DNA of 64,000 nt from an uncultured Gammaproteobacteria bacterium (GCA_964349875.1 CAYGIG010000001.1:52-64051); one strand, 5' to 3'; positions 3,876-60,834 are shown, counted from the first letter of the stretch. The notes: generated from the sequence alone by a model not told the origin. Numbers and translations: made by a program.

Positions 3876-3934
3876 AACCACTCACACCCACTCAATGGAA
3901 ATACGAAACATCACCAAACATAACCTCTTTTCTG

Positions 3935-4429: not shown

Positions 4430-4472
4430 ATTTTGTCTTTTTTAGTCTTCATAGAGCATAATAACCCGCATT

Positions 4473-31344: not shown

Positions 31345-31782
31345 ATGCGTATTGCTAATCGTCGCGCCTATCATGATTATTTCATTCTAGAAACCTTCGA
31401 AGCGGGTATTGCTCTTGCGGGCTCCGAGGTAAAATCTCTCCGCCTCGGAAGAGGTAATTTGCAGGAAAGTTTCGTTAAAGTATTATCTGACGGTCTTTAC
31501 CTCGTCAATTGCCATATACCCTCGTTCCAAGGTTCACAGCTCAACATTAGTCCCGATCGAGACCGCAAATTACTCATGCACAAAAAAGAAATCCTCCATC
31601 TGACCATGCATAACACTCAAAAAAGTATTTCCATTATTCCACTCGCAATTTATTTCAAAAATAATCTTGTTAAAATCCAAATTGCTCTTGCCAAACCCAA
31701 AAAACTCGCCGACAAAAGAGCAACTTTAAAAAAAGCCGCGATTGATCGCGACATTGCCAAGTCTTTAAGGTCTAAAATATAA
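31345..31782 (+). CDS. smpB: SsrA-binding protein SmpB
   Basis: IANRRAYHDYFILETFEAGIALAGSEVKSLR, KLLMHKKEI and the basic C-terminal tail match SmpB. Confidence 0.9.
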   Translation: MRIANRRAYHDYFILETFEAGIALAGSEVKSLRLGRGNLQESFVKVLSDGLYLVNCHIPSFQGSQLNISPDRDRKLLMHKKEILHLTMHNTQKSISIIPLAIYFKNNLVKIQIALAKPKKLADKRATLKKAAIDRDIAKSLRSKI

Positions 31783-33727: not shown

Positions 33728-34405
33728 CTATCCTGCCAACACCAGTACCCACACTTTCCCAGCCCCTCTTCGTTTCAAAACTTTCACACACTCTCTTGCA
33801 GTCACTCCGGTAGTTATTACATCGTCTATTAACAGAAAATTTGACCCTTTTTTAAAATTATTCTTCACTTCAAAAGAATTAATGATATTTTTTAGTCTCT
33901 CTTTTTTGTTCAACTCAAATTGAGGCTTGGTATCCTTGTTTCTTTTTAAGCAATCCTCAGTTTCTAAGCCAAATTTAGCAGCCGCAGCCCGCCCCAAAAG
34001 CTCCGCCTGATTAAACCCTCTTTTGTTTAATTTCGTGTTTGATATCGGCACCCAGGTAACTACAAAATTATTCCTCTTCCAATAATCCACCAGCCGAGAA
34101 TCTGTTTTTGCATAAAGTTCAGAAAGCTCAACAACCAAACTTCTTACCCGACGAAATTTTATTTCTTTAATCAGTTTTTTGATTCCGCCTTTGTATCTAA
34201 AAATTACAAATATTCCTTCTACAGAAAGAACTGTTTTACATTTTGGATGAGTCAATCCGTCTAATCCAAGCCTACGGCACTTAATACAGCGCTGACTCAG
34301 GTAAAGCTCCTGTTTTTTAATACATTTTGCACAAAAATAAGTCGCACTTTTCCCGCACCCGATGCATTTTTTAGGAAACAGCCAACTACTAACAAAATTA
34401 AGCAT
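33728..34405 (-). CDS. comFC: ComF family protein (ComFC, phosphoribosyltransferase-type competence protein); start placed at the internal Met after the tmRNA terminator
   Basis: N-terminal zinc finger CIGCG...CAKC. C-terminal PRTase motif LLIDDVITTGVTAREC. The upstream part of the track ORF overlaps the tmRNA gene and is rejected. Confidence 0.75.
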   Translation of the reverse strand: MLNFVSSWLFPKKCIGCGKSATYFCAKCIKKQELYLSQRCIKCRRLGLDGLTHPKCKTVLSVEGIFVIFRYKGGIKKLIKEIKFRRVRSLVVELSELYAKTDSRLVDYWKRNNFVVTWVPISNTKLNKRGFNQAELLGRAAAAKFGLETEDCLKRNKDTKPQFELNKKERLKNIINSFEVKNNFKKGSNFLLIDDVITTGVTARECVKVLKRRGAGKVWVLVLAG

Positions 34406-34416
34406 AATTTTAAGCA

Positions 34417-34449
34417 ACAAAAAAGGCCGCCCATGTTGAGCAGCCTTTT
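34417..34449 (-). terminator. Rho-independent terminator downstream of tmRNA
   Basis: Minus strand AAGGCTGC-tcaacatg-GGCGGCCTT followed by a T-run. Confidence 0.45.
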
Positions 34450-34480
34450 TGTCTTTTCCTTTTTCAAGAAATTCCATTAG

Positions 34481-34934
34481 TGGAGATGGCGGGCTATGAA
34501 CCCGCGTCCGATAATAATCCGAAAAGAAACTTCTACAAGCGTAGTTAGTGTTTATAAAAATCATTCTGATCTCCAAACCCACTAACAGGCGCTGGAGGCA
34601 AAACTATCTAATTTAATTAAGAATACCCAAAATTAATTGAGTACTAATAATATCTTTTCCGCATTTCTCAAAATTAGCAAATGAGCGCTTAGACTCCAAC
34701 AAAGGTTATACCCTAAGCGGCTCCGTTGGAGAAAAACCACTTAAAGTCCTTATCGGCCTAACTTAGGCAAAAGCGTAAGCAGACGGACGAGGAGCAAACA
34801 ATCCCGCGAGGGAGTCGTTTACTTTGTCAGAAATTTTGCTGACATTTATTTTTTCTAAAAATATTTTGCGAGTTATTTAGAATCACTCGGCTTGCAGTTT
34901 TTAACGAGCTAAACCGTCGAGGCAATACATCCCC
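34481..34934 (-). ncRNA. ssrA: tmRNA (SsrA), ~454 nt, CCA not encoded
   Basis: 5' end GGGGATGTATTGCCTCGACGGTTTAG (conserved GGGG..TCGACGG). 3' tRNA-Ala-like end GGACGCGGGTTCATAGCCCGCCATCTCCA with a G3-U pair in the acceptor stem. In-frame tag candidate ...GCT CCT CGT CCG TCT GCT TAC GCT TTT GCC TAA (APRPSAYAFA, stop near 34763). smpB is 3 kb away. Confidence 0.8.
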
Positions 34935-37658: not shown

Positions 37659-38237
37659 ATGCATATCTTTAACCTCGCCCAAAAAACCATACTGGTTATG
37701 GCATTTTTTGTTTTCGGCACTATTTTCACCTATTTAGCTAATCCTCAACCCGTCCACGCAGAAGCAGGATGGAAAATAGTCGGCGGTGACAGTGTCGACA
37801 ACCCGCAACGGTGTATGTATTCTGACAACAACGCAGATTTTGAAAACGTTTATTCTTCTCAAGCAGCCTGCCAAGCAGGTCTTACAAATTCAGAAAACAC
37901 CGACTTTACCCCATTTAGCGGTGAATCCAGCGTACCTTGTCATCCAACTTGCTCCATCGGAGGCCTCTTCACTTTTGACACTAGCGACAAGGGTGGAAAA
38001 ACCGTTTCCCGTATTCTATTTATTAGTATTTCTATCGCCGCCATTATCTCATTTATTATGGCGGGCTTTGGAGCCGTCAGAATCATCACCTCTGCCGGCA
38101 ACCCAAGCGGTATTAACGCTGGAAGAGAAATGATAATTGCCGCCATTTCCGGCCTCCTCTTCATAATTTTTTCCGTCACAATTCTGCAAATTATTGGCGT
38201 TTCCTCCTTACAAATTCCGGGTTTTGGAATTTACTAA
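37659..38237 (+). CDS. VirB2/TrbC-type T4SS pilin-like protein with an N-terminal Cys-containing extracellular domain
   Basis: Signal/TM segment, then a domain with Cys at QRCMY, AACQAG and VPCHPTCSIGG. C-terminal hydrophobic-loop-hydrophobic module IITSAGNPSGINAGREMIIAAISGLLFIIFSV, shared with the five downstream paralogs. Confidence 0.6.
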   Translation: MHIFNLAQKTILVMAFFVFGTIFTYLANPQPVHAEAGWKIVGGDSVDNPQRCMYSDNNADFENVYSSQAACQAGLTNSENTDFTPFSGESSVPCHPTCSIGGLFTFDTSDKGGKTVSRILFISISIAAIISFIMAGFGAVRIITSAGNPSGINAGREMIIAAISGLLFIIFSVTILQIIGVSSLQIPGFGIY

Positions 38238-38240
38238 AAC

Positions 38241-38576
38241 ATGACAGACCAACTTAAACAAATTGCTCTCACTCTCGGCGATGTCAACGTCGACAACCCA
38301 ATCGGCTATAACCAATCCGGTCAGGCGTATAACGTCGGCACCTTAATCACTGCGGCCATGCTTGTTGTGATTTTTCCGTTTGCATTTTTGGTTTCAATAA
38401 TCCTCATCGCAATCGGTGGATTAAGAATCATTATGAGCCAGGGCAACCCAGGCGCAGTCTCAGGCGGACGATCAATGATAATCAACTCAGTCATTGGGCT
38501 TGTAATCATCTCAATTGCCTGGGCTGTTACTTCATTCGTCTCCACCAACCTACTTAACGTCAACGTAATCGGATAA
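38241..38576 (+). CDS. VirB2/TrbC-type T4SS pilin-like protein (paralog 2)
   Basis: TM1 LITAAMLVVIFPFAFLVSIILIAIGG, loop IIMSQGNPGAVSGGRSM, TM2 IINSVIGLVIISIAWAV. Confidence 0.65.
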   Translation: MTDQLKQIALTLGDVNVDNPIGYNQSGQAYNVGTLITAAMLVVIFPFAFLVSIILIAIGGLRIIMSQGNPGAVSGGRSMIINSVIGLVIISIAWAVTSFVSTNLLNVNVIG

Positions 38577-38577
38577 C

Positions 38578-38898
38578 ATGCAGGATTCCGCTAAATATTT
38601 AGCTCAAAACATAAGTATAAAAGAGTTGTTTCAACCCGCCAAAAGCGGAAAATTCGATAACGTGGGAGATCTTGGTTCTTTTATTTTTCAAATATTGCTT
38701 TATTTTGGCGTAATTCTCGCTGTGATTTTTATTATTATCGGCGGATACAAATTTATAACCTCCGGAGGCGACCCCGCAAAAGCTGCTGGCGCCAAAAGTA
38801 CACTTATTTATGCAATTGTTGGCCTTATTCTAATGTTCTTCTCTATTGTGATAATGTATGTAGTACAAGCCACTTTTATTAACAACGCCAAATTGTAA
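38578..38898 (+). CDS. VirB2/TrbC-type T4SS pilin-like protein (paralog 3)
   Basis: ITSGGDPAKAAGAKSTLIYAIVGLILMFFS loop and TM2. Start 2 nt after the previous stop. Confidence 0.65.
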   Translation: MQDSAKYLAQNISIKELFQPAKSGKFDNVGDLGSFIFQILLYFGVILAVIFIIIGGYKFITSGGDPAKAAGAKSTLIYAIVGLILMFFSIVIMYVVQATFINNAKL

Positions 38899-38899
38899 T

Positions 38900-39355
38900 A
38901 TGTCCAAAGTCAAATCGGCCATTATCACGGCAATATTTACGATCATCAATCTTTCAGGTTTTTTCCCTTTACTTGGCGTATCAAAAGCTCTGGCAGGCCC
39001 AACCGATGGAACTGATGGGGGTGGTAGTGGTGGAATTTCAGGAGAAAATAATCCATTAGGAGCAATAAGAGGTCCAAGCGGAGTTCCTACCGAACCAGGC
39101 TCCCTTGTTTCTATCATTAATTTATTAATAAAAGGTTTGATGGGAATTGGTTTTTTATTAGCTTTTATTTACTTACTTCTTGCAGGAATTAGCTATATTA
39201 CTAGTAACGGAGAACCTGCCAAAACCGCCGCAGCTCAGAAAAAAATCATCTACGCCATTATTGGAATGGTTGTTATTGGACTATCTTTTGCGGTCCTTTC
39301 ACTAATCGAAACAATATTCGGAATACCGGTTACAAGTCCGGAGCTTCCATTCTAA
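38900..39355 (+). CDS. VirB2/TrbC-type T4SS pilin-like protein (paralog 4) with Gly-rich insert
   Basis: ITSNGEPAKTAAAQKKIIYAIIGMVVIGLS, plus a flexible GPTDGTDGGGSGGISGENNPLG segment. Confidence 0.6.
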   Translation: MSKVKSAIITAIFTIINLSGFFPLLGVSKALAGPTDGTDGGGSGGISGENNPLGAIRGPSGVPTEPGSLVSIINLLIKGLMGIGFLLAFIYLLLAGISYITSNGEPAKTAAAQKKIIYAIIGMVVIGLSFAVLSLIETIFGIPVTSPELPF

Positions 39356-39424
39356 AACCTTGAAAGGGGGTGAGTTGTTATAAAAAAATTAATCGCCTTA
39401 TCATCTTCGATTGCCGGAACTTTA

Positions 39425-39763
39425 TTGACCTCAACATTTGCACTTGCTGACGAAATTAACGTAAACCCTTACGGAGTTAACGTCGCTGAACCTGGCCAAA
39501 TCTTAAGTTTCGTAATCAAAGCAATTATTTTTGCTGCGTTCCTTATCGCTTTCATCTGGCTGTTAATCGGTGGTATCAAATGGATCCTTAGTAGCGGAGA
39601 TCCAGGAAAAGTTGCTGCTGCCAGAAGCCAAGTAATTCACTCACTCGTTGGTTTAGTAGTTGTAGTTCTAGCTTTAGCTTTAATTATGCTTGTCCAACAG
39701 ATACTTGGAGTCAGTATTATTACTGGAGATTCATTTACCATTCCAACAATTGGAGGTAACTAG
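39425..39763 (+). CDS. VirB2/TrbC-type T4SS pilin-like protein (paralog 5); the signal peptide appears to be encoded upstream from ~39374 without a canonical start codon
   Basis: ILSSGDPGKVAAARSQVIHSLVGLVVVVLA. The in-frame upstream sequence after the TGA at 39371 reads VVIKKLIALSSSIAGTLLTSTFALA/DE, a textbook signal peptide. Only GTT/ATA/TTG codons are available as starts. Confidence 0.55.
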   Translation: MTSTFALADEINVNPYGVNVAEPGQILSFVIKAIIFAAFLIAFIWLLIGGIKWILSSGDPGKVAAARSQVIHSLVGLVVVVLALALIMLVQQILGVSIITGDSFTIPTIGGN

Positions 39764-39961
39764 GTTTTGGGTATCGTTAAACGCATACCTTGTAGCTTTT
39801 GTTTGAAAAAAAGTGGAAGATCTGTCCTTTTTCGAAGAACAATTAAGCGAGAACTTAAATTTCTAGTTCTTGAATAATATCGATTGCCGGAGAATGTATC
39901 CAGCAATCGATATTTCAAGTTTTAAACAAATTACTGTTATTATTTAGTTAATAGTCAAGAT

Positions 39962-40345
39962 ATGCCCAAATACCTCAAAATAATCTCAGCCTTCATTGCC
40001 ATAAACATCGGTTCTTCCACTGCGGTTTTTGCTGACGGAGAACCGCCGCAGATTGTGCAGCTTACAGAATTGATCAGCAAAATTATTGGATTTATCGCAC
40101 CAATTGCCGGTATTGGTTTCTTTCTAATACTTGTCTACGCAGGCTATTTGTACATCTTTTCTTTTGGTGATCCAGGCAAAGCCGGCAAGGCTCGAAGTGC
40201 CATGCTAACAGCCGTTATCGGTCTTGTCGTCTTGGTACTAATCTATTTAGTTTATGTCGCAATTGGGCTAATGACCGGCTGTAATGTACTTGAACTAAAC
40301 TTCAACAACCCTGACTCGGTTTGTCCAAGTAATACCGGGTCATAA
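39962..40345 (+). CDS. VirB2/TrbC-type T4SS pilin-like protein (paralog 6)
   Basis: Signal peptide, then IFSFGDPGKAGKARSAMLTAVIGLVVLVL. C-terminal Cys pair (GCN...VCPSN). Confidence 0.6.
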   Translation: MPKYLKIISAFIAINIGSSTAVFADGEPPQIVQLTELISKIIGFIAPIAGIGFFLILVYAGYLYIFSFGDPGKAGKARSAMLTAVIGLVVLVLIYLVYVAIGLMTGCNVLELNFNNPDSVCPSNTGS

Positions 40346-40355
40346 TTCAAAAGCC

Positions 40356-41540
40356 GTGATACCACAAAAAAAGATTCTCAGTTTTTTTGTATCCGTCACA
40401 CTAATCTTGGCCTCAGCTCCTCCTGTTTTGGCCGCTGCACCCAAAGTCTGTACCTACCCCGCTCCGCCAGATAGCTCCAACCCAACTTATGTCCAACCAA
40501 CCTGGTTCGAATTAGAAAACAAAACCGAAAACGAATTTAAACCTCCAAGGGCAGTAGTCAATGCCTCAGGAAACTCCGCCGTTGTAAACAAACCTGTATT
40601 ACCCTACGCACGCTCGATGGCCAACTACCTTGAGGGGAAATTTCAAACAGATTCACACCGTAAAGCAGATATTTCAAAATTTACCAATAATGAACTCAGC
40701 AACTTTAATGGACCATTAATAAAAGTATTACCTAAAAACAACCTCGACAAGCTCCGTCAAACCTATGTCGAAACAGTCTATCAGCTCTCCAAATCAGGCA
40801 CCACCAAGCTCGAGGAAGCAACCGCAGAATATGCCGACTTCTGTGGTCAGCATTTCAGAACAATTAAGGACCTATATTCAGCTTGGGGCAAACCCAAACC
40901 TCCGGGGCTAGACCAAGGTGTTTCCAACTCCAAATGGGAGAGTACTTGGGGAAGATATTGGGCAAAAATTCCTCTAGTCACCAATTGGACCTCAAGAGGC
41001 TGTCTCTCCTCGACATCTGACTCAAAAGACGTTTCCGAATCCTGCACTCCCGGAAGAGATTTGCTTCTAGGTGTCCCTTCTGTTGCCAGACTGGCTGCGC
41101 TTTCTCAAATCTTGCAGCAAATCACTATTCCGCAGGACCTAATCAAAGAAGCCAAAGATTTTAATCCCGAACCCGCCAAGGCCGAAGGACGCGAAGGCCC
41201 AGGAGAAGAATATATTCTTCTCTACAATAGCTCAGGCGTAGTTGCTAATTCTGTTGCTTACACCAAGACCGGTAGTCTAATTTCTGCCCGCATACCTTAT
41301 GTTGACGTCGCCTGGAAATCCTTAGTTCGCAAAAAAACCGGCGGTTTTAGACTGTTTGGCCCAGGAGATTTTTGGAGTACCCACAACACAGGCGAATTTT
41401 CCGATACAGCCTCAACCAGACTTAAAGGCTTTGGTAGTTCCAATCAAGTCTGGGCGGGTTACCTAGGCAGCATTCAAACCGCTAAAGAAATCATCCTAAA
41501 AACCATTACCCCTAAAGATGTTGAAATCAAAAAAGAGTAA
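40356..41540 (+). CDS. secreted protein of the T4SS-like locus (signal peptide; possible pilus-associated or adhesin component)
   Basis: GTG start. MIPQKKILSFFVSVTLILASAPPVLAAAP signal peptide. Mature part has several Cys. No known motif. Confidence 0.45.
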   Translation: MIPQKKILSFFVSVTLILASAPPVLAAAPKVCTYPAPPDSSNPTYVQPTWFELENKTENEFKPPRAVVNASGNSAVVNKPVLPYARSMANYLEGKFQTDSHRKADISKFTNNELSNFNGPLIKVLPKNNLDKLRQTYVETVYQLSKSGTTKLEEATAEYADFCGQHFRTIKDLYSAWGKPKPPGLDQGVSNSKWESTWGRYWAKIPLVTNWTSRGCLSSTSDSKDVSESCTPGRDLLLGVPSVARLAALSQILQQITIPQDLIKEAKDFNPEPAKAEGREGPGEEYILLYNSSGVVANSVAYTKTGSLISARIPYVDVAWKSLVRKKTGGFRLFGPGDFWSTHNTGEFSDTASTRLKGFGSSNQVWAGYLGSIQTAKEIILKTITPKDVEIKKE

Positions 41541-41593: not shown

Positions 41594-43279
41594 ATGCGTC
41601 TCAAACTAGTCCTGCCAATTATCGTAATAGCTAGCCTTCTCCTAACATTTTTCAGCTTCAAACCAGTATTTGCCGAGGACCCTTTTAAATGTGACGAGCA
41701 AGCAGCAGCCGCTGGCGGTGCAGCTTCAGGCACTTCAGCAATTTCCAACCCCCAATTGGGAGTCGGCGAAACAGTTCAACCCTACCAGCAATCAATTTGT
41801 CAGTACAAAAATGCCCTCGACGAGGACGATGTTAATCTGCAAAAATTCAACCTCGGCCTTATGGACAATCTTGCATTTGGCATTAATCGCCAAATTACCG
41901 GCCTCCCCGCAACAGACGCAGAATTAGCCTGTCTGGAAGCAGGTACATGCAAAACCAGTGCCGCAATTCCTTTTCTGATGAAAAGCATTTCTATGCTTTA
42001 CACTGAAAAACCGGCTTCAGGAGTGCAATATTTGGCCGACCTTAAATCAAAAATCACAGGCGACACACTCGCCGCCCAAACTGGCTACGACGCACTTAAA
42101 CCTACCCAAGCTCTTTGGACAACCTTCCGCAACCTCACCCTTCTTTTGTATGTCATTTTCTTTATCGTTATTGGTTTTATGATTATCTTCCGCCAAAGAT
42201 TAAGCTCTAGCTCTGTCGCTTCTGTTCAAGCGGTATTGCCAAAAATAATTGTCAGTCTAATTCTAGTAACTTTCTCCTATGCCATTGTTGGCTTAATGAT
42301 CGACCTGATGAACTTTTTCATCGCCATTATGATTAATATTCTTTCCACTCAAGACGTGGCCAGAGCAAACTCGAACGATATTTACTACAACAAAAGTGTC
42401 TTTAGTTTTATGTTTAATGACCTTTTTCTGAAAAATATCACAGGTATATTTTCTGTGCCGAACGATATTATCTCAGGGGCTCTTGATGAGGTCGACGTAA
42501 TGCCTGACTTAATTAATAATTTTGCCTCAGGATTACTCGCCGGCCTCGCAGTTGCTGTCATTGCAATAATGCTACTAGTCGCAACATTTAGAGTATTCAT
42601 GATGTTGCTAATGGCTTATGTTAAGGTCTTTTTCTACACCATCTTTGGGCCACTGATGATTGGTATTGGTGTTATTCCAGGTATGCCGGGATTTGGGCCA
42701 TGGATAAGAAACATCGCCGCACAACTCTCAACATTTGTCATTACTATTCTAATGATTATTTTTGCTGCGTACTTTATGGGAGTCAGTAAAGGCGATAACG
42801 GAATAACCTCAGGCGAAGCGACAATAACCTCAGGCGAGGGTTGGAATGCGCCATTATTGGGCGGCTTCACAAACCCTGAAGGTGGCGGTAACGCACTAAA
42901 GGGAATGATTGGTATAGGAATACTTTTAGGTATTCCGTCGGCAGCCAAAATCGCTCAAGACGCCTTTAAGGTTAAAGGTGGTGGAATTGGCGGCATGATC
43001 GGCGGAGCAGCCGGCGCTAGTGCTGGTGCAGGCATGGCAATGGCTGGAAGTCCGTTTAGAGGCGCTGCCGGCAGAGCAAAAACAAATGTCAATAATTTTG
43101 CCGGAGAAAGATTGAACAACACTTTTAATCCATTGAGTGCTGACCGAAGATATGACAGGCTCTCAAGACAAGCAGGTGCCTCCACACCAATAAACCCAGG
43201 TACTTCAGGTCCTGCAGGTCCAACATCGGTACCGGGAGCTAGGAATAGAGTCGCAAACCCCTTCCGCCGGAGAACATAA
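41594..43279 (+). CDS. VirB6/TrbL-like polytopic membrane protein with N-terminal Cys-rich exported domain and Gly-rich C-terminal tail
   Basis: Signal peptide. ~150-aa domain with 5 Cys. Then 5-6 TM helices (LLLYVIFFIVIGFMIIF, IIVSLILVTFSYAIVGLMIDLMNFFIAIMI, LLAGLAVAVIAIMLLVATF ...). GGIGGMIGGAAGASAGAGMAMAGS tail. Placed between the pilin array and VirB4, as VirB6 is in Gram-positive systems. Confidence 0.55.
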   Translation: MRLKLVLPIIVIASLLLTFFSFKPVFAEDPFKCDEQAAAAGGAASGTSAISNPQLGVGETVQPYQQSICQYKNALDEDDVNLQKFNLGLMDNLAFGINRQITGLPATDAELACLEAGTCKTSAAIPFLMKSISMLYTEKPASGVQYLADLKSKITGDTLAAQTGYDALKPTQALWTTFRNLTLLLYVIFFIVIGFMIIFRQRLSSSSVASVQAVLPKIIVSLILVTFSYAIVGLMIDLMNFFIAIMINILSTQDVARANSNDIYYNKSVFSFMFNDLFLKNITGIFSVPNDIISGALDEVDVMPDLINNFASGLLAGLAVAVIAIMLLVATFRVFMMLLMAYVKVFFYTIFGPLMIGIGVIPGMPGFGPWIRNIAAQLSTFVITILMIIFAAYFMGVSKGDNGITSGEATITSGEGWNAPLLGGFTNPEGGGNALKGMIGIGILLGIPSAAKIAQDAFKVKGGGIGGMIGGAAGASAGAGMAMAGSPFRGAAGRAKTNVNNFAGERLNNTFNPLSADRRYDRLSRQAGASTPINPGTSGPAGPTSVPGARNRVANPFRRRT

Positions 43280-43305: not shown

Positions 43306-46131
43306 CTACAAATCCTTCTTTATCTGATCTTTACTCTGATTAAACAAGGTTTTTATCCAAAATACTGGCACATTCAATAATAAATTCTTCGGAGAAAGCA
43401 CCTCCCTTGCAAAAGCCTTAGTAATCTCCGCCGGCCTACTAACAAAAGTACGCTTCACTTTACCGCCATAAAGTTCTTTAAGTAATTGGTCCATTTCACT
43501 CTTACCAAGATAAACCGGCACTTGCTTGAGCAAATAGTCCTCAACTCTTCTCGGCCCCCATCTGCCATACTGCGGCTTATTATCTCCTTTAACATTTATT
43601 ACTCCGTTTACACTCATCTTATGTACCATCAATGCCTGCAATACACGCCTATTAAATTCGCGCCGGTCATCAGGTGATTTTGCAAAATAGCTATCCATTA
43701 GTGCTTTGGCTCCCTCTTCTGTCGGGCTCATTTCAAACGCTTCTAACTTACCGTACATGTCGTTAGTTTCAGTTGCTGCCGCGTCTTTATAAACATCATC
43801 TTTAAGATTGGTCACAATATTTGTATTCCTTTTTATTTTCTCTCCGAAATCGTCAATATTTTTAAACTCTTCAAGACTGCTCGAACCAAACAAGGCCATT
43901 AACTTTTCGGATGGATCTGTATATTTGTAAAATCCGTCTCTTAAAAATATGTGTTCAAAAATCGCCTGGTTCTCAAAATTAACCTTATTTCCCCCAGCCT
44001 CGATCATCCACTGCGGAAAGCGATCCTTAATTAGCGCATTGTCCTTGTAATTACCCGCAAAAATGTAATTTCTGTCATTAAAATATTTACCAGCCTTTCC
44101 CTTTGTTCCTTCGTCTCCAGGTTTTGGCGCCACCTTGATTGGCTCGATGACAATTGGCGCAATTGTCGTTTCGTAAAAATCTCTAGCAACAGCCATTCTC
44201 TGCTCAAAGGCAATTTTATTTGCTGAATACTCATTCGAGCCTTTAATTTTATCCGTCAACGCCTCCTTTTTTGCAGAATCACTATCATCGATCTCAAAAC
44301 CGTTTATCTCCGCAAACTTTGCTCTATATACACCGTTTTCCAAAAATTTTGCGTTCAACTTACTCTTTACAAAAACCTCTTTCATTTGCTGTTTAAATTT
44401 AAAACCCACTGTCCAATTATCCTGATGAGCGTCCTCAAAACCACTTTGCTCATCTGAACTCAATGCTACATATTGTGCCTGCAAATCATCGTCAACAAAA
44501 ACCCTGCCCTCATTGCCTAAAACAGTTTCATTTTTTAACCTGCTTCTTACTTCTTCTTCCGATTTTAATTCTGGAGCATTATTAATAGCCTTAAATACCG
44601 CAGAGTCTGCTTGATATCTCGCCAAAACCATCTTTCTTACAGCTTCCCCTTCCGCACCACCCAATATATCAACCAAAGCTTCGTAATTAAGTGTGCTAGA
44701 TAACGCTTCAGAAACCTCCTTGGCACCCCTGCCTTTAGCGGCGACAGCGAAATTATGCATTCTCCTTAAAGCTTCATATTCTCGTTTAAATTGATCTATG
44801 TCTGGTGAGAACGTTTGTCTAGTATCTGGATCAAGCTCGTCAAATCGGCGGATTTTATCACTATTAGCCGGAATTTCGCTGGGCTTTTCCAAATCCTGCA
44901 ACGCTCGTAATTTAATAATCTCCAACGGATTAAATGCCTCAATTGCACTACTAACTTCCAATCTTGCTTTTTCCAAAACAATATCTAAAGCATCTGCTCT
45001 CAAATCAAGCTCCTGTCTTTCTTCAACCTTCTTAACTTCCTTCTCTCTTAATCCTTGAATTGCACCAGACAGATCGTTAAATCTATTTAAAAGTTCCTCT
45101 TTGTTTATTCTGATACTGTCCGTTGCACGAATAGTCTCAATAATTCTTTTCTCCTGGTCTTTAATCCTGGTATAAATCCTGTCTCTATCTGTTCTATAAG
45201 CATCTTTACTACTCTCAGTTTCAAGTGTTGTCGTAAGTGCTTCCGAAATTTCATCGAGTTCAGCCAATTCAGTAACTGAGGCGGCCCCACTACTCTTTCT
45301 CTCCTCAAGCTCTTTCTTTCTTCCCAACTTACTGACACTTTTTTCGGCCGTGGGTTTGGACTCCGATTCTGCTGTAGGAGGCTTTGCTCCAAAAGCAGCA
45401 AAGGCGCCTTCTCGGTCACGAGTATTTAGTAATTGTTCAAAAAAATTAGCCGTCACCTCCATATCTCCACCAAGCTCTTCAGCTTTGGCTCTAATAGCTT
45501 CACTTGTAATACCTTCCGCCTGAAATCTCGCAAACAACCTCGCCGCTCGCTCTTCCGGACTATCGGTACCGTCAGAACCACCAGCATCAGTACCACCTGA
45601 ATCGCCCGAGTCCGCCGAATCATCAAAATTGTCGAAGTCGCTTGCAAAATAAGCTTGACTTATATCGTTTATTGCCTCATCCCTACTTCTTAACAGATCA
45701 AACCTATAGCTACCCCCGTCGATAAAAGAGGCATATTTAACTCCGTCATTTCCGACTACTATTGACTGTATTCTTTTTGGTTTGGCCCATATAAAAACTC
45801 CGCTGGTTCCGTTCTTATCCACCGCAACAACCAAATCCCCCACTTTAAAAGGGGAAGGATCATCATCCTCATTTTCATTCTTGGAAGTTTTTTCATCATC
45901 GCCCGTATCTTTCAAAATACTCGGATCTTGTCGCTCTCCAGGATTACTTGCGTCACGTCCGTCAAGCTCCTTCTCAAAAAAGTTTGCCGCGGCCTCTATG
46001 TCTCCATGAAACTCATCAGCTTTTGCTCTAATTTCGTCCGAAGTTATACCTGCCGCGCGGATTCTCGCAAACAACTCATTTGCTCTCTTTTGTGGATCTT
46101 CTAAAATAGAATCTTCTCTCTGTTCTGCCAT
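43306..46131 (-). CDS. large acidic hypothetical protein (941 aa) with two ~40-aa UBA-like internal repeats, embedded antisense in the T4SS-like locus
   Basis: Repeat 1 ELFARIRAAGITSDEIRAKADEFHGDIEAAANFFEKEL. Repeat 2 ARLFARFQAEGITSEAIRAKAEELGGDMEVTANFFEQLL. Asp/Glu-rich linkers (DSADSGDSGGTDAGGSDGTD). No Walker, HUH or TM motifs seen. Confidence 0.5.
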   Translation of the reverse strand: MAEQREDSILEDPQKRANELFARIRAAGITSDEIRAKADEFHGDIEAAANFFEKELDGRDASNPGERQDPSILKDTGDDEKTSKNENEDDDPSPFKVGDLVVAVDKNGTSGVFIWAKPKRIQSIVVGNDGVKYASFIDGGSYRFDLLRSRDEAINDISQAYFASDFDNFDDSADSGDSGGTDAGGSDGTDSPEERAARLFARFQAEGITSEAIRAKAEELGGDMEVTANFFEQLLNTRDREGAFAAFGAKPPTAESESKPTAEKSVSKLGRKKELEERKSSGAASVTELAELDEISEALTTTLETESSKDAYRTDRDRIYTRIKDQEKRIIETIRATDSIRINKEELLNRFNDLSGAIQGLREKEVKKVEERQELDLRADALDIVLEKARLEVSSAIEAFNPLEIIKLRALQDLEKPSEIPANSDKIRRFDELDPDTRQTFSPDIDQFKREYEALRRMHNFAVAAKGRGAKEVSEALSSTLNYEALVDILGGAEGEAVRKMVLARYQADSAVFKAINNAPELKSEEEVRSRLKNETVLGNEGRVFVDDDLQAQYVALSSDEQSGFEDAHQDNWTVGFKFKQQMKEVFVKSKLNAKFLENGVYRAKFAEINGFEIDDSDSAKKEALTDKIKGSNEYSANKIAFEQRMAVARDFYETTIAPIVIEPIKVAPKPGDEGTKGKAGKYFNDRNYIFAGNYKDNALIKDRFPQWMIEAGGNKVNFENQAIFEHIFLRDGFYKYTDPSEKLMALFGSSSLEEFKNIDDFGEKIKRNTNIVTNLKDDVYKDAAATETNDMYGKLEAFEMSPTEEGAKALMDSYFAKSPDDRREFNRRVLQALMVHKMSVNGVINVKGDNKPQYGRWGPRRVEDYLLKQVPVYLGKSEMDQLLKELYGGKVKRTFVSRPAEITKAFAREVLSPKNLLLNVPVFWIKTLFNQSKDQIKKDL

Positions 46132-46384: not shown

Positions 46385-48409
46385 ATGGAAGAGCATGCTG
46401 TACCGCAGAACATAACTAATTTTGAGTTCAAACTTTTTGGCCCTTTTACCATCCATCAATTCATTTATGTTGCCATAGGCGGCATTATCGGAGCTGTTTT
46501 TTATTTTTCACCGCTTCCAAAAGGCATTGCTTATATTCTTGGTGGAATTGCTGTTTTTGGAGGTATCGGGTTTGCTGCCATCCCTTTGCAGGGCAGGTCT
46601 CTAGATAAATGGATTATCGCTTTCTTTCGCTCAATTACTCACCCAACCCAGCGAATTTGGATTAAAGATAATCACATTCCATATTTTCTCGAAACCAGCT
46701 TTCTGCAAACCACCCCTCAACCTACAACTACCCAGCCTCTTGCCTCGCCGCGCCTTAATCATGCTGATTTACAAACACTTTTAGCCAAGCAACGCCGCAC
46801 CACAAACGATAATCCCTTCGATCAAAAAGAAAGTCAGTTTTTGAGTCAAATTTTAAGTCTTAACTCGACCGTTAAAGCTACAGCCGCACCACCACCCCAA
46901 AATCAACAAGCCAATCAATCCCCATTCTCTCCATTCCAAAAACCTTATCGAACTTCGCGTCCAATTATTCAAGCCACTCCTAAGCCGGCCCAGCTTTTAG
47001 TGCGGGAACAGGAGATAAAAGCACAAGAACTAGCTTTGGCTGAAAAACAGAAGGAATTAGAAGCAACCAAGCTCAAACTCGAAGCTGAAAAGCAAAAAAA
47101 ACTTGAACTTCTAACTCAAAAACCTACCATTCAGGCGCACGCAATCGGCAACTTAGAGATTCAAAAACGTCCTGAACCATCTCCAGCTTCTACTCCGATC
47201 ATAAAATTCTCCGACTATCCGGAAAGCCTTAATCCTGATCGCGAGATCAAAGTTCTGCCTTACAACCCAATCACTGCCCCTGCTGGATCCACAGCTCCTC
47301 AAAATCCTCACACGGACCACACCGCAACCGACCAGGCCTCTAAACAAAGGCTGGCCGAGCTTGATAAAGTTCTTCTGGCCCAGCAAAAGATCGAGGCTGA
47401 GATAAAAGCCAAAGAAGAAGAAATTAAGCATCAGCAAACAAAAATTCAGCAGGAAGAAGAAAAGTTCACTCAAGCATGGAAAGATTTCGAAAAAACCAAA
47501 AGCCTGATCGAAGGAGGGGTTGATACCTCCACACCTGACGCGCTGTCTAGACACATGCTTACAAATATTGGCAAAAAAACCACTGTTGCACCAATGCCGT
47601 CATCAAACTTCTCATCTCTTTACAGCACCCAGCCAATCGCCGCTCAAATAGCTTCAGACATAAATTTCGGCGGTAATGTAATTGCCATCCCCGGCATTAA
47701 AGTACAATTTCTTCAAGGCATTGGAGACACTAGAATCAGAAAACTTCGTTCCAGACCGCCTGATTTTTCAAAAGCAACCCTGCCAATTCTCGGAGAAAGA
47801 CAGTTTGATATCAGCAAAGAACTGAAAAAACGCTACGAACAACCCTCAGAATCCACAGCCGTCAAAACCGCACCAGCAACGGGAATTTCTATTGAACAAA
47901 TAAAAAAAGTCGGCGACTTTCAACCAGTCAGGGCAGGAGAAATAAAAGAGCACGAGAGTAAAAACTTTACCCCGCCTCCAAGCCCTAATATTCACCCCAA
48001 ACCAGAAAAACAATCTAAAACACAGGAGAATGTTGAACACACCCCCGCCCAGCGACCTAAACACGGCCAAATAGTCCAACCCTTTAACTACCAAAAAGAG
48101 ACTTCAAATACCGCCCCAAAAGCCGAAGTCAAAATCAACCTTTCCGAACATTCCAACACTCCCAACGGTATTGTTTACAATAGCCAGGGCGGGCTGATCC
48201 AGGGAGCACTAATCTCTGTATTTGATCGTGACGGGGTTCCTGTTAGGGCTTTCAAAACTAACGGTCTTGGTCAGTTCGTCTCCGTCACACCACTGCCTGA
48301 TGGACACTATACGATTCAGACAGAATTTAACGGTTTAAACTTTGATACAATTGCCTTCGATGCAGAAGGAAAGCTTCTTGATCCATTTGCTATAACTGCT
48401 AAAAACTAA
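46385..48409 (+). CDS. PrgI/VirB3-like membrane hairpin fused to coiled-coil, Pro/Gln-rich linker and C-terminal carboxypeptidase-regulatory-like beta-sandwich domain
   Basis: N-terminus FEFKLFGPFTIHQFIYVAIGGIIGAVFYFSPLPKGIAYILGGIAVFGGIGFAAIPLQGRSLDKWIIAFF is a two-TM hairpin like PrgI/TcpE/VirB3 analogues upstream of VirB4. Then a heptad region (KELEATKLKLEAEKQKKLE). C-terminus GIVYNSQGGLIQGALISVFDRDGVPVRAFKTNGLGQFVSVTPLPDGHYTIQTEFNG is CarboxypepD_reg-like. Confidence 0.55.
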   Translation: MEEHAVPQNITNFEFKLFGPFTIHQFIYVAIGGIIGAVFYFSPLPKGIAYILGGIAVFGGIGFAAIPLQGRSLDKWIIAFFRSITHPTQRIWIKDNHIPYFLETSFLQTTPQPTTTQPLASPRLNHADLQTLLAKQRRTTNDNPFDQKESQFLSQILSLNSTVKATAAPPPQNQQANQSPFSPFQKPYRTSRPIIQATPKPAQLLVREQEIKAQELALAEKQKELEATKLKLEAEKQKKLELLTQKPTIQAHAIGNLEIQKRPEPSPASTPIIKFSDYPESLNPDREIKVLPYNPITAPAGSTAPQNPHTDHTATDQASKQRLAELDKVLLAQQKIEAEIKAKEEEIKHQQTKIQQEEEKFTQAWKDFEKTKSLIEGGVDTSTPDALSRHMLTNIGKKTTVAPMPSSNFSSLYSTQPIAAQIASDINFGGNVIAIPGIKVQFLQGIGDTRIRKLRSRPPDFSKATLPILGERQFDISKELKKRYEQPSESTAVKTAPATGISIEQIKKVGDFQPVRAGEIKEHESKNFTPPPSPNIHPKPEKQSKTQENVEHTPAQRPKHGQIVQPFNYQKETSNTAPKAEVKINLSEHSNTPNGIVYNSQGGLIQGALISVFDRDGVPVRAFKTNGLGQFVSVTPLPDGHYTIQTEFNGLNFDTIAFDAEGKLLDPFAITAKN

Positions 48410-48411
48410 AG

Positions 48412-49443
48412 ATGAAATCTGCCCCGATCAAATCATCAACTCAAGACCATCTAGATATCGCAGACATTCGCGATGATGTTGTTATACTTAAAGATAATTC
48501 CGCCGCAATCGTTATTCAAACAGCGGCCATAAATTTTGAACTGCTCTCCGAGTCTGAACAGGATTCAATTATTTATTCATACGCCGGACTATTAAACTCA
48601 CTTAACTTCACCACACAAATCGTTGTACGCAGTAAAAAAATCGATCTTAGTAATTATTTACAGCTGATCTCAGACGCAGAATCCCATCAGGCTAACCCTG
48701 ATATCAAGCGCCAGATCTATCAGTACCGGCAGTTTATTCAGACGATTGTTCAGCAAAATAACGTCTTAGAGAAAAAATTCTACGTGGTTGTTCCTTTTAA
48801 TCCACTCGAGTTAGGCGTCAAGGGCGCAGCTTTAGGCAAAGTTCAAAAAGACACAACACACCTTCAGGGTTTTATTGATTTGGTCAAAACCAGTCTTTAT
48901 CCAAAACGAGACCATTTGATCAAACAGTTTGCTCGTCTAGGAGTTAAATCCAAACAATTAACCACTCAGGAGTTAATAGAGCTGTATTTTGATATTTACA
49001 ATCCAAGCGAGGTCGGATTGCAAAAAATCACCGAAGCTGCAGGATCATACACCTCCCCAATGGTCTCACCGGCCGTAGCTGCTCCAAATCTCGCAGATCC
49101 AAGCACAAACGACTTAGCTCCGATCGTACCGACTACATCAAACCTTGCCCAATCGGGTCCAAACCTTGAATTACAACCTGCCCCTTTTGCACCTGCAGCA
49201 CCGCAAAACAACCCCACAATCTCAGCTCCGCCACCAAGTATTCAGCCGGCTACTCCCGTTGTCACCACTGAAACTCCGATCCAAAATACCAACATTCCGC
49301 CAATTCCAGATCAAACTCCGGTAAACTCATTTTCTCCCGCTGCACAAAACTCTCAAGCCCCAGAACAGCCCGAGGTAACTCCCAGCAGCAACACTCTCGA
49401 TCCTGACATTCTAAAGGCTCTCGATGCACTAAAATCGCCTTAA
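48412..49443 (+). CDS. VirB4 N-terminal-domain-like protein lacking the ATPase domain, with Pro-rich C-terminal tail
   Basis: DIADIRDDVVILKDNSAAIVIQTAAINFELLSESEQDSIIYSYAGLLNSLNFTTQIVVRS follows the N-terminal pattern of VirB4/TrbE family proteins. No Walker motifs. C-terminal ~120 aa are Pro/Ala/Thr-rich. Confidence 0.45.
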   Translation: MKSAPIKSSTQDHLDIADIRDDVVILKDNSAAIVIQTAAINFELLSESEQDSIIYSYAGLLNSLNFTTQIVVRSKKIDLSNYLQLISDAESHQANPDIKRQIYQYRQFIQTIVQQNNVLEKKFYVVVPFNPLELGVKGAALGKVQKDTTHLQGFIDLVKTSLYPKRDHLIKQFARLGVKSKQLTTQELIELYFDIYNPSEVGLQKITEAAGSYTSPMVSPAVAAPNLADPSTNDLAPIVPTTSNLAQSGPNLELQPAPFAPAAPQNNPTISAPPPSIQPATPVVTTETPIQNTNIPPIPDQTPVNSFSPAAQNSQAPEQPEVTPSSNTLDPDILKALDALKSP

Positions 49444-49465: not shown

Positions 49466-51334
49466 ATGAGTATATTCGGCAAGAAAAACAACCAAGACTC
49501 AGGCCAGACAGCACCACAGTTGGCATCTGCTCAGGCAAAAGCCGTTGCACAAGGTACGGTTTCAGTACGCGACATTATCGCCCCGCCTGCAATTGAGGTT
49601 GACTTTGACTCAATAAAAATCGGAGAAACGTACTTTAAAACACTCTTTGTTATTGGCTACCCTCGATATGTGGGTGCCAACTGGCTATCTCCGCTTATTA
49701 ACTTCAACCACACACTGGAAATATCTATGTTTCACTATCCTGTCGAAGCCCAGGCTGTTTTAGATGACATTAAGCGAAAGATCGGCGAAATGGAAGCCAC
49801 GATCTCTACCGACATCCAAAGAGGAAAAGTCGTTGACCCAAGTGTTGAGGTCGCACTCGACGACGCACGTGAATTTCAGCAGAATCTTGTCAAAGGAGCC
49901 GAAAAATTCTTCCAGTTTGGTCTTTATGTCACAGTTCCCGCCGACACCAAAGAGGAGCTTGTAAATATCACCAAACAAGTCGAGAGCCTGCTTGGCTCTA
50001 TTATGGTCATCTCCAAACACGCAACACTACAGCAAGAAGACGGATTCCGTACCACACTGCCTTACGGTCACGACAAAATGCTTGTGACCAGAAACATGGA
50101 CACAACCTCGCTGGCCACAACTTTTCCGTTTACTTCCAGCTCGCTTACCAGCAATGAAGGAATTATGTATGGTATCAACGAGCACAACGGCTCGCTTATT
50201 ATCTTTGACCGTTTTAGTCTGGAAAATGCCAATACGGTAATTTTTGCAAAATCCGGTGGAGGAAAGTCGTATTTAACCAAACTTGAGGCTCTCCGCTCTC
50301 TAATGTTCGGAACAGAAATCATCATTATTGATCCTGAGGAAGAATATAAAAATCTCTGTACAGCAATAGGCGGCGAATATATTAGTTTTGACTTCAACTC
50401 CGACACCAAAATTAACCCATTTGATCTCTCCGGAGTTTACGAAGAAGGCGAAAACGAGCTGGGCCTCAAAATCCTTTCACTCCACGGGTTGTTCAGAGTC
50501 ATCATGGGACAGCTTTCTGCCACTGAAGATGCTATTCTCGACCGAGCCTTGGTACTCGCTTACAAGAACAAAGGCATAACCGCTGATCCTCAAACACAAA
50601 CCCTTCAACCGCCATTGATGGAAGATTTGTACAAAGCCCTAATCGGCATGGAGGAACCACAAGCACAAACTCTGGCCGAAAGGATTGAAAAATTTGTCAA
50701 AGGCTCATTGGTTGGAATTTTTGATCAATATTCCAATCTGGATATCCGAAACACATTCACTGTTTTTAGTATTAAAAATCTCGAAGCAGAACTTCGTCCT
50801 ATCGCAATGTACATCATCCTCGATTTTATTTGGACCAGAGTTAAAAGGGATCTTAAAAAGAGAATACTAATAGTCGATGAGGCTTGGTACATGATGCAAT
50901 ATCCGGACTCGGCCACTTTTATGTATTCAATTGCCAAGCGCGCCCGAAAATATTATCTCGGCCTGACCACTATCACACAGGATGTTGAAGATTTTCTCGG
51001 TACTGAGTACGGCAAAGCCATCGTTACAAACTCCAGTTTGCAGATTTTACTCAAACAATCTCCCGCAGCAATCGACAAACTCGCCGAAGTCTTTTATCTC
51101 TCAGAAGGAGAAAAACATCTGCTTTTGGCCGCAGATGTTGGAGAAGGGTTGTTTTTTGCAGGCAGCTCCCATGTCGCTATGCGTGTAATTGGCTCTCCAG
51201 AGGAACACCAACTTGTTACCAGCAACCCCAAAGAAGTACTTGAAATGCAAAACCAGGCTGAAGCCGAACAGGCAAACATTGATAGAGACAGCTCTCAAGC
51301 ACAAGCCTCTGATCAAACTCAGGAAATCATCTAA
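49466..51334 (+). CDS. virB4: VirB4/TraC/CagE-family T4SS ATPase (Gram-positive-type, PrgJ/TcpF/ConE-like)
   Basis: N-terminal KTLFVIGYPRYVGANWLSPLINF. Walker A FAKSGGGKSY. Walker B ILIVDEAWYMM. LGLTTITQDVEDF C-terminal motif. 622 aa. Confidence 0.85.
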   Translation: MSIFGKKNNQDSGQTAPQLASAQAKAVAQGTVSVRDIIAPPAIEVDFDSIKIGETYFKTLFVIGYPRYVGANWLSPLINFNHTLEISMFHYPVEAQAVLDDIKRKIGEMEATISTDIQRGKVVDPSVEVALDDAREFQQNLVKGAEKFFQFGLYVTVPADTKEELVNITKQVESLLGSIMVISKHATLQQEDGFRTTLPYGHDKMLVTRNMDTTSLATTFPFTSSSLTSNEGIMYGINEHNGSLIIFDRFSLENANTVIFAKSGGGKSYLTKLEALRSLMFGTEIIIIDPEEEYKNLCTAIGGEYISFDFNSDTKINPFDLSGVYEEGENELGLKILSLHGLFRVIMGQLSATEDAILDRALVLAYKNKGITADPQTQTLQPPLMEDLYKALIGMEEPQAQTLAERIEKFVKGSLVGIFDQYSNLDIRNTFTVFSIKNLEAELRPIAMYIILDFIWTRVKRDLKKRILIVDEAWYMMQYPDSATFMYSIAKRARKYYLGLTTITQDVEDFLGTEYGKAIVTNSSLQILLKQSPAAIDKLAEVFYLSEGEKHLLLAADVGEGLFFAGSSHVAMRVIGSPEEHQLVTSNPKEVLEMQNQAEAEQANIDRDSSQAQASDQTQEII

Positions 51335-59997: not shown

Positions 59998-60834
59998 ATG
60001 GAAATCTTAAATCAAATTTTTATTGACCCGACCCTTAATGTTGCGATATTTTTTTACAAAATATTTGAAGCGGCAAATTTCCCTTTTCCTCTGGCCTTTG
60101 CAATTTTAGGCCTAACCATTCTAATTAGGCTAATTGTTTGGCCTCTTACCTCCAAGCAGCTTCATCAAACCAGAAAAATGGCCGAGTTAAAGCCTCATCT
60201 TGATGATCTTAAAAAAAAGCACGGCAAGGATAAAACTATTCACGCACAAAAGCAGTCTGAACTATATAAAGCACACGGAGTAAACCCGGCAACGGGCTGT
60301 ATTACTATACTTATTCAGCTTCCAATATTCTTTTCGCTTTACCAGGTACTAAGCACCATTGTTTCCGCAGGGGGCAATTCACTAGATGTTATTAATAAAG
60401 TTAATCAGAGCCTGTACTTTTCGTTTCTTCATTTAAACAAACCTCTTGACGCTTCATTTTTGGGTACCCAGCTTAGTACAAAACCAGCAGACTGGCAGTC
60501 GGCCGGTGTTTTACTTCTTCTCGTTCCGGTAATCACAGCAATATTTCAACTAGTTCAATCAAAGATGGCTATTCCAAAATCTCAAGGACTAGCAAAAATC
60601 AAAAAAGACCCCAAAGAGAAAGAAAGTCTTGCAGATTCCTTAATGCAGGCTCAAGGTCAGATGACTTTTATCCTTCCTTTGCTTATCGGCTACTTCTCTT
60701 ACACACTCCCAATAGGCTTGTCGCTGTATTGGAATATCTTTTCGGTGTTTGGCATAATTCAGCAGTATCTTGTCATGGGCTGGGGGTCTTTGGTAGACTG
60801 GCTACCCGCTCTGAATAAAAAGAAAAATGGATAA
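59998..60834 (+). CDS. yidC: membrane protein insertase YidC (short form)
   Basis: ILIRLIVWPLTSKQ and GCITILIQLPIFFSLYQ conserved TM segments. 278 aa, 5 TMs. Confidence 0.9.
   Translation: MEILNQIFIDPTLNVAIFFYKIFEAANFPFPLAFAILGLTILIRLIVWPLTSKQLHQTRKMAELKPHLDDLKKKHGKDKTIHAQKQSELYKAHGVNPATGCITILIQLPIFFSLYQVLSTIVSAGGNSLDVINKVNQSLYFSFLHLNKPLDASFLGTQLSTKPADWQSAGVLLLLVPVITAIFQLVQSKMAIPKSQGLAKIKKDPKEKESLADSLMQAQGQMTFILPLLIGYFSYTLPIGLSLYWNIFSVFGIIQQYLVMGWGSLVDWLPALNKKKNG

Follow-up and report, generated by a model that had tools for sequence, protein, structure and literature searches.

Six paralogous VirB2-like pilin genes at the head of a monoderm-type type IV secretion locus in a probable member of the Microgenomatia

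Patescibacteria, which live attached to other bacteria, account for a large share of the bacteria that have not been cultured. In one tested species, Southlakia epibionticum, this attached lifestyle requires a type IV secretion system (T4SS) together with its pilin array; the locus of ML1, SEML1_0006-0019, carries six pilins (Wang et al., 2023; PMC10633639). VirB2-like pilins have since been reported from 1,948 Patescibacterial assemblies, with 441 arrays of 2-11 genes, an array being defined as at least two pilin genes in tandem or split by one non-pilin gene (Quinonero-Coronel et al., 2025; PMC12102498). According to that survey, members of an array are on average 25% and at most 54% identical, arrays are especially common in Microgenomatia and Saccharimonadia, and the accompanying machinery is MPF_FATA-like, without a relaxase and near dnaA, with VirB6 scarce in Microgenomatia. 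The same authors noted that MPF_FATA lacks homologues of virB2 and treated co-option of the pilins from diderms as an open possibility. A 2025 review singled out the six divergent VirB2-like pilins of S. epibionticum as remarkable and speculated on a pilus conduit (PMC12857230). Here we analyse a 64,000-nt stretch of DNA (GCA_964349875.1, CAYGIG010000001.1:52-64051; the window, in what follows) recorded as an uncultured Gammaproteobacteria bacterium, in which six pilin genes, P1 to P6, form a tandem array at positions 37659-40345.

The locus has every defining feature of the published Patescibacterial arrays and is of a kind described in 2023-2025. Like S. epibionticum ML1, Nanosynbacter lyticus TM7x with its 'Sec secreted array' and the 441 arrays of the survey, it combines tandem PF18895/VirB2-like genes of about 25% mutual identity with a chromosomal MPF_FATA-like T4SS that includes PrgI/VirB3, TrsD/TraC-like and VirB4 components, lies near dnaA and dnaN and, as far as its ORFs were scanned, has no relaxase nearby. 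It is thus a clean and complete Microgenomatia example and no new kind of system. We consider it probable, with moderate confidence, that the six genes encode paralogous VirB2-like subunits of a Patescibacterial monoderm-type T4SS which are co-assembled in one heteromeric pilus or conduit. Five aspects may reach modestly beyond the literature: the position-specific orthogroups of the pilins, the expression signature and ATA start of P5, the kinship with NF045849, a 561-aa VirB6 candidate and the occurrence of poly-pilins. For those who study such systems, the locus offers as handles a likely bulk subunit (P5), an exposed and specialised one (P1), a fixed and old gene set, and a candidate for the missing VirB6.

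All six genes are on the plus strand, as the first-pass annotation of the window had stated: P1, the first of the array, at 37659-38237 (192 aa), P2 at 38241-38576 (111 aa), P3 at 38578-38898 (106 aa), P4 at 38900-39355 (151 aa), P5 at 39380-39763 with a probable ATA start (127 aa; 39425-39763 and 112 aa in the list of open reading frames, ORFs) and P6 at 39962-40345 (127 aa). The C-terminal module ascribed to them there, a pair of hydrophobic helices with an I-x-S-x-G-[DNE]-P loop between them, is common to all six and is followed by short exposed tails, and each of the six quoted loop strings was found verbatim in the array proteins. Alignment of the paralogs leaves I143, S145, G147 and P149 in the loop and G165 in helix 2 invariant (P1 numbering), at 22-30% identity to P1 and a mean column identity of 34%. 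The proposed add-ons were likewise recovered, namely four cysteines (C52, C71, C94 and C98) in the exported N-terminal domain of P1, a Gly-rich stretch after the signal peptide of P4 and a C-terminal cysteine pair (C107 and C121) in P6. The spacing needs correction: gaps of 2 nt had been given for paralogs 2-4, and the measured distances are 3 nt for P1/P2 and 1 nt each for P2/P3 and P3/P4. A further 24 nt separates P4 from the ATA start of P5, and 198 nt lies between P5 and P6. Judged by eye and by hydropathy, signal-peptide-like N-termini are confined to P1, P4, P5 and P6. P2 consists of a hydrophilic N-tail of about 30 aa and then the hairpin; P3 has relatives with a weak signal peptide that is missing from the window protein. 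P4 is laid out as signal peptide, Gly-rich exposed N-tail and hairpin, and P6 as signal peptide, hairpin and a C-terminal tail with the cysteine pair.

The kinship of the six proteins is evident from profile searches. In a leave-one-out test, a hidden Markov model (HMM) built from the modules of five paralogs was compared with the 423 six-frame stop-to-stop segments of at least 50 aa in the window, and the sixth paralog was always recovered, with E-values of 4.5e-10 (P1), 3.7e-16 (P2) and up to 6.5e-21 (P5). No segment outside the array scored better than E 0.07 in these searches despite the many other membrane proteins of the window, and an iterated HMM made exactly six matches in the 64 kb, all inside the array. 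The T4SS pilin family PF18895, with a gathering cut-off of 26.6 bits, was matched above that cut-off by four of the six, P3 being the best Pfam match (41.1 bits), followed by P6 (39.7), P4 (37.8) and P5 (34.1), which bears out the T4SS-pilin assignment of the earlier reading. By profile evidence P1 and P2 are homologues of the same family, and for P1 this also rests on phmmer and hhalign: a phmmer search of a database of 5.8 billion sequences aligned the C-terminal 39% of P1 to dozens of proteins annotated as PF18895, with E-values from 1e-12 to 1e-8, and the P1-orthogroup profile aligned by hhalign with a family profile built without P1 gave a probability of 96.6% at E 4.9e-10 over 79 columns. 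When all six paralogs are combined in one profile, at least 967 proteins are retrieved, and PF18895 is the annotation of almost all of them. Among 1.84 billion cluster representatives, 103,760 belong to the family at E <= 1e-3, of which 44,616 also pass E <= 1e-10.

The structure models agree with these assignments in showing a hairpin. The AlphaFold2 model of P5 is a two-helix hairpin (residues 38-70, an SGDP turn, residues 75-109) with pLDDT values of 89-97, and in that of P1 (pLDDT 70) a C-terminal hairpin (residues 113-144 and 149-179) stands behind a linker of low confidence. One might still ask whether the likeness is due to chance or is generic, the genes encoding unrelated proteins with two transmembrane (TM) helices or else type IV or Flp pilins; P1 and P2 do lie under the Pfam cut-off, and fold searches return generic hairpins only. 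This is contradicted by leave-one-out E-values of 1e-10 to 1e-21, as opposed to E >= 0.07 for the other membrane proteins of the window, by the hhalign result for P1 and by the conserved synteny with T4SS genes. In addition, the Pfam scan of the six paralogs gave no type IV or Flp prepilin family at E <= 1, and inspection of the six sequences revealed no prepilin-peptidase motif, either G followed by F/M-x-x-x-E or the Flp form G-x-x-x-x-E-Y. Type IV and Flp pilins have one hydrophobic helix at the N-terminus, whereas the module here is a hairpin of two such helices at the C-terminus. We regard the chance explanation as refuted, with next to no probability left to it.

Within the wider pilin families the position of the array is more remote. 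In a set of 61 family members, all 61 match PF18895, 48 match NF045849 and 17 match the TrbC/VirB2 family PF04956 (at E <= 0.01; best 1e-7). In the window itself, PF04956 (cut-off 27.9 bits) is approached by P3 alone, with 21.2 bits and E 3.5e-4, which is below the cut-off, and the other five paralogs give no match; by this curated test the paralogs are remote relatives of VirB2/TrbC and not members of PF04956. NF045849 is an equivalog family of pilin-like proteins (Mbov_0395/MMCAP2_0565) from integrative and conjugative elements (ICEs) of Mycoplasma, with a cut-off of 40 bits. Five of the six paralogs match it below that value (P3 34.0 bits, E 1.8e-8; P4 29.6; P6 25.6; P2 23.5; P5 21.7), P1 does not match, and the best E-value in the 61-member set is 4.2e-17, which makes them homologous to NF045849, as far as profile comparison goes, yet not equivalogs. 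A match to pLS20_p028, seen for two of the 61, was too weak to use.

The array is not confined to this genome. Seven close assemblies contain the same six genes, identically ordered and pairing 1:1 as best matches, in keeping with the suggestion of the first-pass annotation that related genomes be searched, and they share the layout of a SpoIID-domain gene on the opposite strand, six pilins, a gene of about 400 aa, one of about 565 aa, an opposite-strand gene, PrgI and a TraC-like gene. Identity of the module to its orthologues depends on position: 92-94% for P5, 69-74% for P1, 66-70% for P2, 56-75% for P4, 54-63% for P6 and 51-54% for P3. At the distance of Curtissbacteria, where the VirB6-like protein is about 35% identical, arrays still have six genes, with a long P1-like gene first and P3-like, P5-like and P6-like genes third, fifth and sixth. 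More widely, in all 43 Microgenomatia loci whose upstream flank is complete, same-strand pilin genes, mostly 6-9, precede the homologue of the 561-aa protein, and PrgI, TraC-like and VirB4 genes follow downstream in at least 24, 20 and 16 of the 43, counts that are lower bounds limited by flank length. Among named organisms, Curtissbacteria, Collierbacteria, Woesebacteria, Shapirobacteria and other Microgenomatia have the closest relatives of the 561-aa protein, and on this basis alone the host is placed in the Patescibacteria, probably in the class Microgenomatia. Records of related metagenome-assembled genomes (loci L008-L087) often bear the title 'uncultured Gammaproteobacteria' or 'Pseudomonadales bacterium'; both the genes they contain and the named organisms closest to them are Patescibacterial, and the titles were disregarded as evident mislabels.

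How the six paralogs came to differ bears on their function. The survey describes Patescibacterial arrays as highly variable, like amplified and varying pilin genes (PMC12102498), whereas the positions in the window behave as old orthogroups. DNA-level matches among the paralogs are all of 25 nt or less, with no longer repeats. Position-specific 1:1 orthogroups that share no DNA repeats favour specialised subunits that assemble together and count against an amplification of recent date. Judged from these comparisons, the specialised genes of the array have long formed a fixed set, one that neither arose by recent amplification nor acts as a bank of recombining cassettes. The first-pass annotation had offered two interpretations of the pattern. 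Specialisation into major and minor pilins fits the old position-specific orthogroups and the uniquely strong Shine-Dalgarno (SD) site of P5, described below; antigenic variation by recent duplication or recombination is at odds with the 1:1 conservation of order and the lack of repeats between the genes.

A broader form of the second interpretation also has to be weighed, in which the six are alternative major pilins, used singly or in changing mixtures to vary the exposed surface, be it for different host strains or for evasion of host or phage. The survey offers this reading, with reference to the VirB2 paralogs of Bartonella and Anaplasma (PMC12102498), and several observations suit it: the paralogs are only 22-30% identical, the exposed tails and the N-terminal domain of P1 diverge much faster than the hairpin, the cysteine patterns are lineage-specific and some P1 orthologues have inserts of 100 aa. 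The duplicated VirB2 genes of Bartonella, Anaplasma and Rickettsia indeed resemble the window in that several divergent paralogs serve a non-conjugative T4SS engaged in host interaction (PMC12102498); those systems are, however, diderm VirB/D4 systems whose copies are thought to provide antigenic variation, whereas the array considered here keeps its order and orthology and belongs to monoderm-type machinery. Orthology and order are strictly 1:1 across the seven assemblies and positional conservation extends in part to about 35% VirB6-like identity, the genes show neither repeats nor conversion tracts among them, there are no silent cassettes (only six copies in 64 kb), and the 1-3-nt spacing from P1 to P4 implies co-expression. 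Moreover, the pilin subunits of S. epibionticum are reported to be essential, not redundant (PMC10633639; PMC12857230), and the fused poly-pilins described below imply assembly side by side. A repertoire of interchangeable pilins therefore seems improbable to us.

The add-ons of individual subunits are consistent with a division of labour. In 14 orthologues of P1 the four cysteines and W38 are invariant and the hairpin is nearly identical, and the exported N-terminal domain is otherwise divergent; some of these proteins have gained N-domain inserts of about 100 aa, and P1-like genes with long N-domains stand first in many Microgenomatia arrays. On account of its first position, its near-invariant hairpin and its divergent four-cysteine exported domain, we regard P1 as a candidate for an exposed, specialised tip or adhesive subunit. 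Orthologues of P6 (L005-L011) have one cysteine near the mature N-terminus and one at the C-terminal end, whereas the window P6 has both in its C-tail. Since both ends of P6 should lie outside the membrane, an end-to-end disulfide could form in the relatives, and such a bond could be reminiscent, by analogy, of the cyclic T-pilin. P4 orthologues have two cysteines in the N-tail; the window P4 has none and a longer Gly-rich insert.

Natural fusions provide further support for co-assembly of the paralogs. Many database proteins, the best-scoring ones in the search with the family profile among them, unite 2-17 pilin modules in one chain (proteins P0288-P0437 and P0185/P0186, and locus L088 at 3870-4751). 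The five poly-pilins that were inspected comprise 3-6 modules behind one signal peptide and joined by continuous linkers. Gene-calling artefacts were considered as their source and rejected for these five, as no start-like junctions occur in them.

P5 stands out from the other subunits in several respects, and both its ATA start and its exceptional SD distinguish it from the published Patescibacterial arrays. The SD AAAGGGGGTGA at 39363-39373 is the strongest of 47 window genes, with -12.0 kcal/mol compared to -8.5 for the next, and the ATA codon at 39380 lies 6 nt downstream. SDs are few in this genome, about 5 of the 47 genes lying below -6.5 kcal/mol and most having no recognisable SD, so that the P5 site stands out. 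Upstream of the listed TTG (39425), the frame is open back to a TGA and encodes the signal peptide IKKLIALSSSIAGTLLTSTFALA ahead of DE, without ATG, GTG or TTG. This arrangement of ATA and signal peptide is kept in the seven close assemblies, with silent and conservative changes (L005 11723-11870, L006 11933-12080 and L007 6174-6321, and also L008, L009 and L011), and gene callers shorten P5 to 77-79 aa in relatives. More distant P5-like genes keep the strong SD and start with ATG. On the basis of this comparison, P5 probably starts at ATA 39380. Initiation at TTG 39425 would remove the signal peptide; an alternative code or read-through was discarded as P4 and P5 share a frame but TAA and TGA stops intervene; and out-of-frame GTG or TTG codons near the SD are absent or not conserved in relatives.

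The spacer between P5 and P6 contains a plus-strand hairpin at 39876-39914, with 16-nt arms, a 7-nt loop and a T-containing tail after it; folding of the spacer has a z-score of -4.2. Relatives have a hairpin at the same spacer site, in which the outer AATATC/GATATT is the same, the inner stem differs but stays complementary and T-rich sequence follows. A simple terminator scan did not call it. The structure is probably a terminator, an attenuator or an mRNA-stabilising stem that closes a P1-P5 unit. Its most conserved module, the unique strong SD and the stem-loop downstream make P5 the candidate for the major, or bulk, pilin.

The array stands at the head of a monoderm-type, chromosomal and origin-proximal T4SS. 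The expected synteny with VirB4 is present: the VirB4-family ATPase is encoded in the same cluster at 49466-51334 (plus strand), and the layout is repeated in relatives. Its class was assigned from the best NCBIfam matches to monoderm families, the first being NF045971 (CD1110-family; 404 bits against a cut-off of 325) and the second the Mycoplasma ICE VirB4 family NF045975 (254 bits); it also matches PF19044 and PF12846, and an identical protein occurs on ENA metagenome contigs. Directly upstream of it on the same strand lie a 674-aa protein (46385-48409) with a PrgI (VirB3-like) N-terminal domain (PF12666, 33.9 bits) and a C-terminal CarboxypepD_reg-like domain, and a 343-aa TraC-like/TrsD-like protein (48412-49443) that resembles the N-terminal domain of VirB4. 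The TraC-like assignment comes from a precomputed PF26593 annotation of an identical protein, the local Pfam scan having given no match, and the equivalence to TrsD is taken from the survey (PMC12102498). Downstream of VirB4, a 1160-aa protein with a C-terminal M23 peptidase domain (51390-54872, plus strand; PF01551, 39 bits) is likely the cell-wall hydrolase in the VirB1/PrgK role.

Between the pilins and PrgI are three further genes. The first, at 40356-41540 on the plus strand, encodes a secreted 394-aa protein conserved directly after the array; it has no Pfam or NCBIfam match, syntenic genes of 391-403 aa occur in L005-L007 and tblastn finds it at 11 of 43 loci. The second (41594-43279, plus strand) encodes the polytopic 561-aa membrane protein, which we consider, from its position and topology, a candidate VirB6, i.e. 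a divergent VirB6/PrgH-like translocon subunit. Its relatives in species genomes number 596 and are always downstream of pilin arrays, and its sole NCBIfam match is a weak one to NF045848 (MMCAP2_0566; E 0.028). As the survey found VirB6 to be scarce in Microgenomatia, the VirB6 of this class may be the gene in question. The third, on the minus strand at 43306-46131, encodes, inside the cluster, a 941-aa protein with no significant family; relatives have syntenic genes of 753-787 aa that are poorly conserved in sequence (2 of 43 loci). On the other side of the array, a SpoIID-domain gene precedes P1 on the minus strand and probably starts near 37639, as deduced from orthologues of 578-598 aa. 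It diverges from P1 at a distance of about 19 nt (18 nt in L005), a gap so short that both promoters must sit inside the coding sequence of the neighbour. Among 39 scanned ORF translations, which are not all of the ORFs of at least 100 aa, no family match to a relaxase or coupling protein (T4CP) was found. We therefore propose that the system probably serves for attachment, or for transport of proteins or small molecules, and does not conjugate DNA.

These elements can be joined into a model. Each pilin would enter the cytoplasmic membrane as an alpha-helical hairpin, P1, P4, P5 and P6 via a cleavable Sec signal peptide and P2 and P3, which have only a hydrophilic N-tail, probably via YidC. 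Both termini would face outward, with the S-x-G-[DNE]-P turn and the K/R residues that follow it in the cytoplasm. The VirB4 ATPase, acting with PrgI/VirB3 and VirB6-like proteins, would pull the hairpins from the membrane and stack them into one heteromeric pilus or a conduit spanning the cell wall and contacting a host bacterium, and the M23 hydrolase would open the wall. In such a structure P5 would supply the bulk of the shaft, P1 would be distal or adhesive, and P2, P3, P4 and P6 would serve as minor or adaptor subunits. A bolder version can be formulated, in which all six are obligate and position-specific, with P5 as the shaft, P1 as a disulfide-knotted tip and the rest as adaptors, stoichiometry is set through the SD, ATA codon and stem-loop of P5, the pilins arrived with the monoderm MPF_FATA machinery and were not borrowed from diderms, and the poly-pilins record neighbour relations. 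As a whole we put this forward tentatively, and would sooner doubt it than rely on it.

Several points weigh against a co-assembled pilus or conduit of VirB2-like subunits. No pilus of this T4SS type has been seen in any Patescibacterium (PMC12857230), and monoderm MPF_FATA systems normally lack one (PMC12102498). P2 (21.5 bits, E 2.6e-4) and P1 (11.1 bits, E 0.43) are sub-threshold for PF18895, and hydropathy finds no N-terminal signal peptide in P2 and P3. Sequence searches of solved structures with the six-paralog and 61-member profiles returned nothing, or chance TM matches to Smoothened (E >= 0.12). Neither a VirB5-like tip protein nor VirB8 was recognised, and the 561-aa protein and 28 homologues gave no Pfam match and no PDB sequence match, which leaves the VirB6 label without statistical support. 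Finally, an ATA start usually lowers translation and weakens the case for P5 as the major subunit.

Some of these points lead to a different proposal, that the hairpins stay in the membrane as a translocation channel or lipid-facing collar with no extracellular pilus, as in pilus-independent VirB2 functions or the small TM proteins in the ICE systems of wall-less Mycoplasma. Monoderm T4SSs are generally without pili (PMC12102498; PMC12857230) and none has been observed for a Patescibacterial T4SS; the closest curated family is the pilin-like one of Mycoplasma ICEs, matched by 48 of the 61 family members, the VirB4 is also near the Mycoplasma ICE type, and a regular helical filament would hardly accommodate poly-pilins of up to 17 tethered modules. 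Yet 6-9 specialised paralogs, one with a disulfide-bonded exported domain, seem more than a collar needs, the strong SD and stem-loop of P5 suggest a bulk structural product, and the family also matches TrbC/VirB2, whose members polymerise. We therefore judge a purely membrane-bound collar to be unlikely and retain the heteromeric pilus or conduit as the favoured reading.

Two groups of better-known pilins can be compared with the array. With the VirB2, TrbC and TraA pilins of diderms (T-pilus, RP4 and F pilus) it shares small size, two hydrophobic helices, a short polar or basic loop and linkage to VirB4, and a signal peptide in four of the six. Those systems have one major pilin, whereas the window has six specialised paralogs in a monoderm host without VirB5, VirB7, VirB9 and VirB10. 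Pilins of the VirB2/TrbC kind form an extracellular pilus by polymerising with phospholipid, and some of them are cyclised. The window proteins give no evidence of cyclisation; the cysteine pair of the P6 relatives could be a disulfide analogue. Mycoplasma ICEs carry a single pilin-like copy on a mobile element with relaxase-type function. Their NF045849 proteins are the best curated relatives of the array and adjoin a VirB4 of the 'VirB4_plasma' type, the type that the window VirB4 matches at 254 bits; in contrast to these elements, the window has six copies in a fixed chromosomal locus, all at or below 34 bits against the cut-off of 40. This link bears on the origin of the pilins. In the 61-member set the matches to NF045849 exceed those to TrbC, both in number (48 and 17) and in best E-value (4.2e-17 and 1e-7), so the monoderm machinery may have brought the pilins with it; inheritance along with MPF_FATA may, on such profile comparisons, account for them in place of co-option from diderms.

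The remainder of the window is housekeeping in character. Beyond the secretion cluster lie dnaN (56233-57363), dnaA (57607-58971) and yidC (59998-60834), and other parts encode rpoD, dnaG, smpB, tmRNA, tRNAs and transporters. Promoter-like matches numbered 14, compared with 8.0 +/- 2.6 in shuffled sequences, and no promoter was assigned. An Rfam scan identified only tmRNA and tRNAs, none of them inside the array. The tmRNA (34478-34934, minus strand; 95.5 bits) is located 2.7 kb from smpB (31345-31782, plus strand) and overlaps the 5' part of an ORF at 33728-34582 for a ComF-like phosphoribosyltransferase, the real start of which is probably further in.

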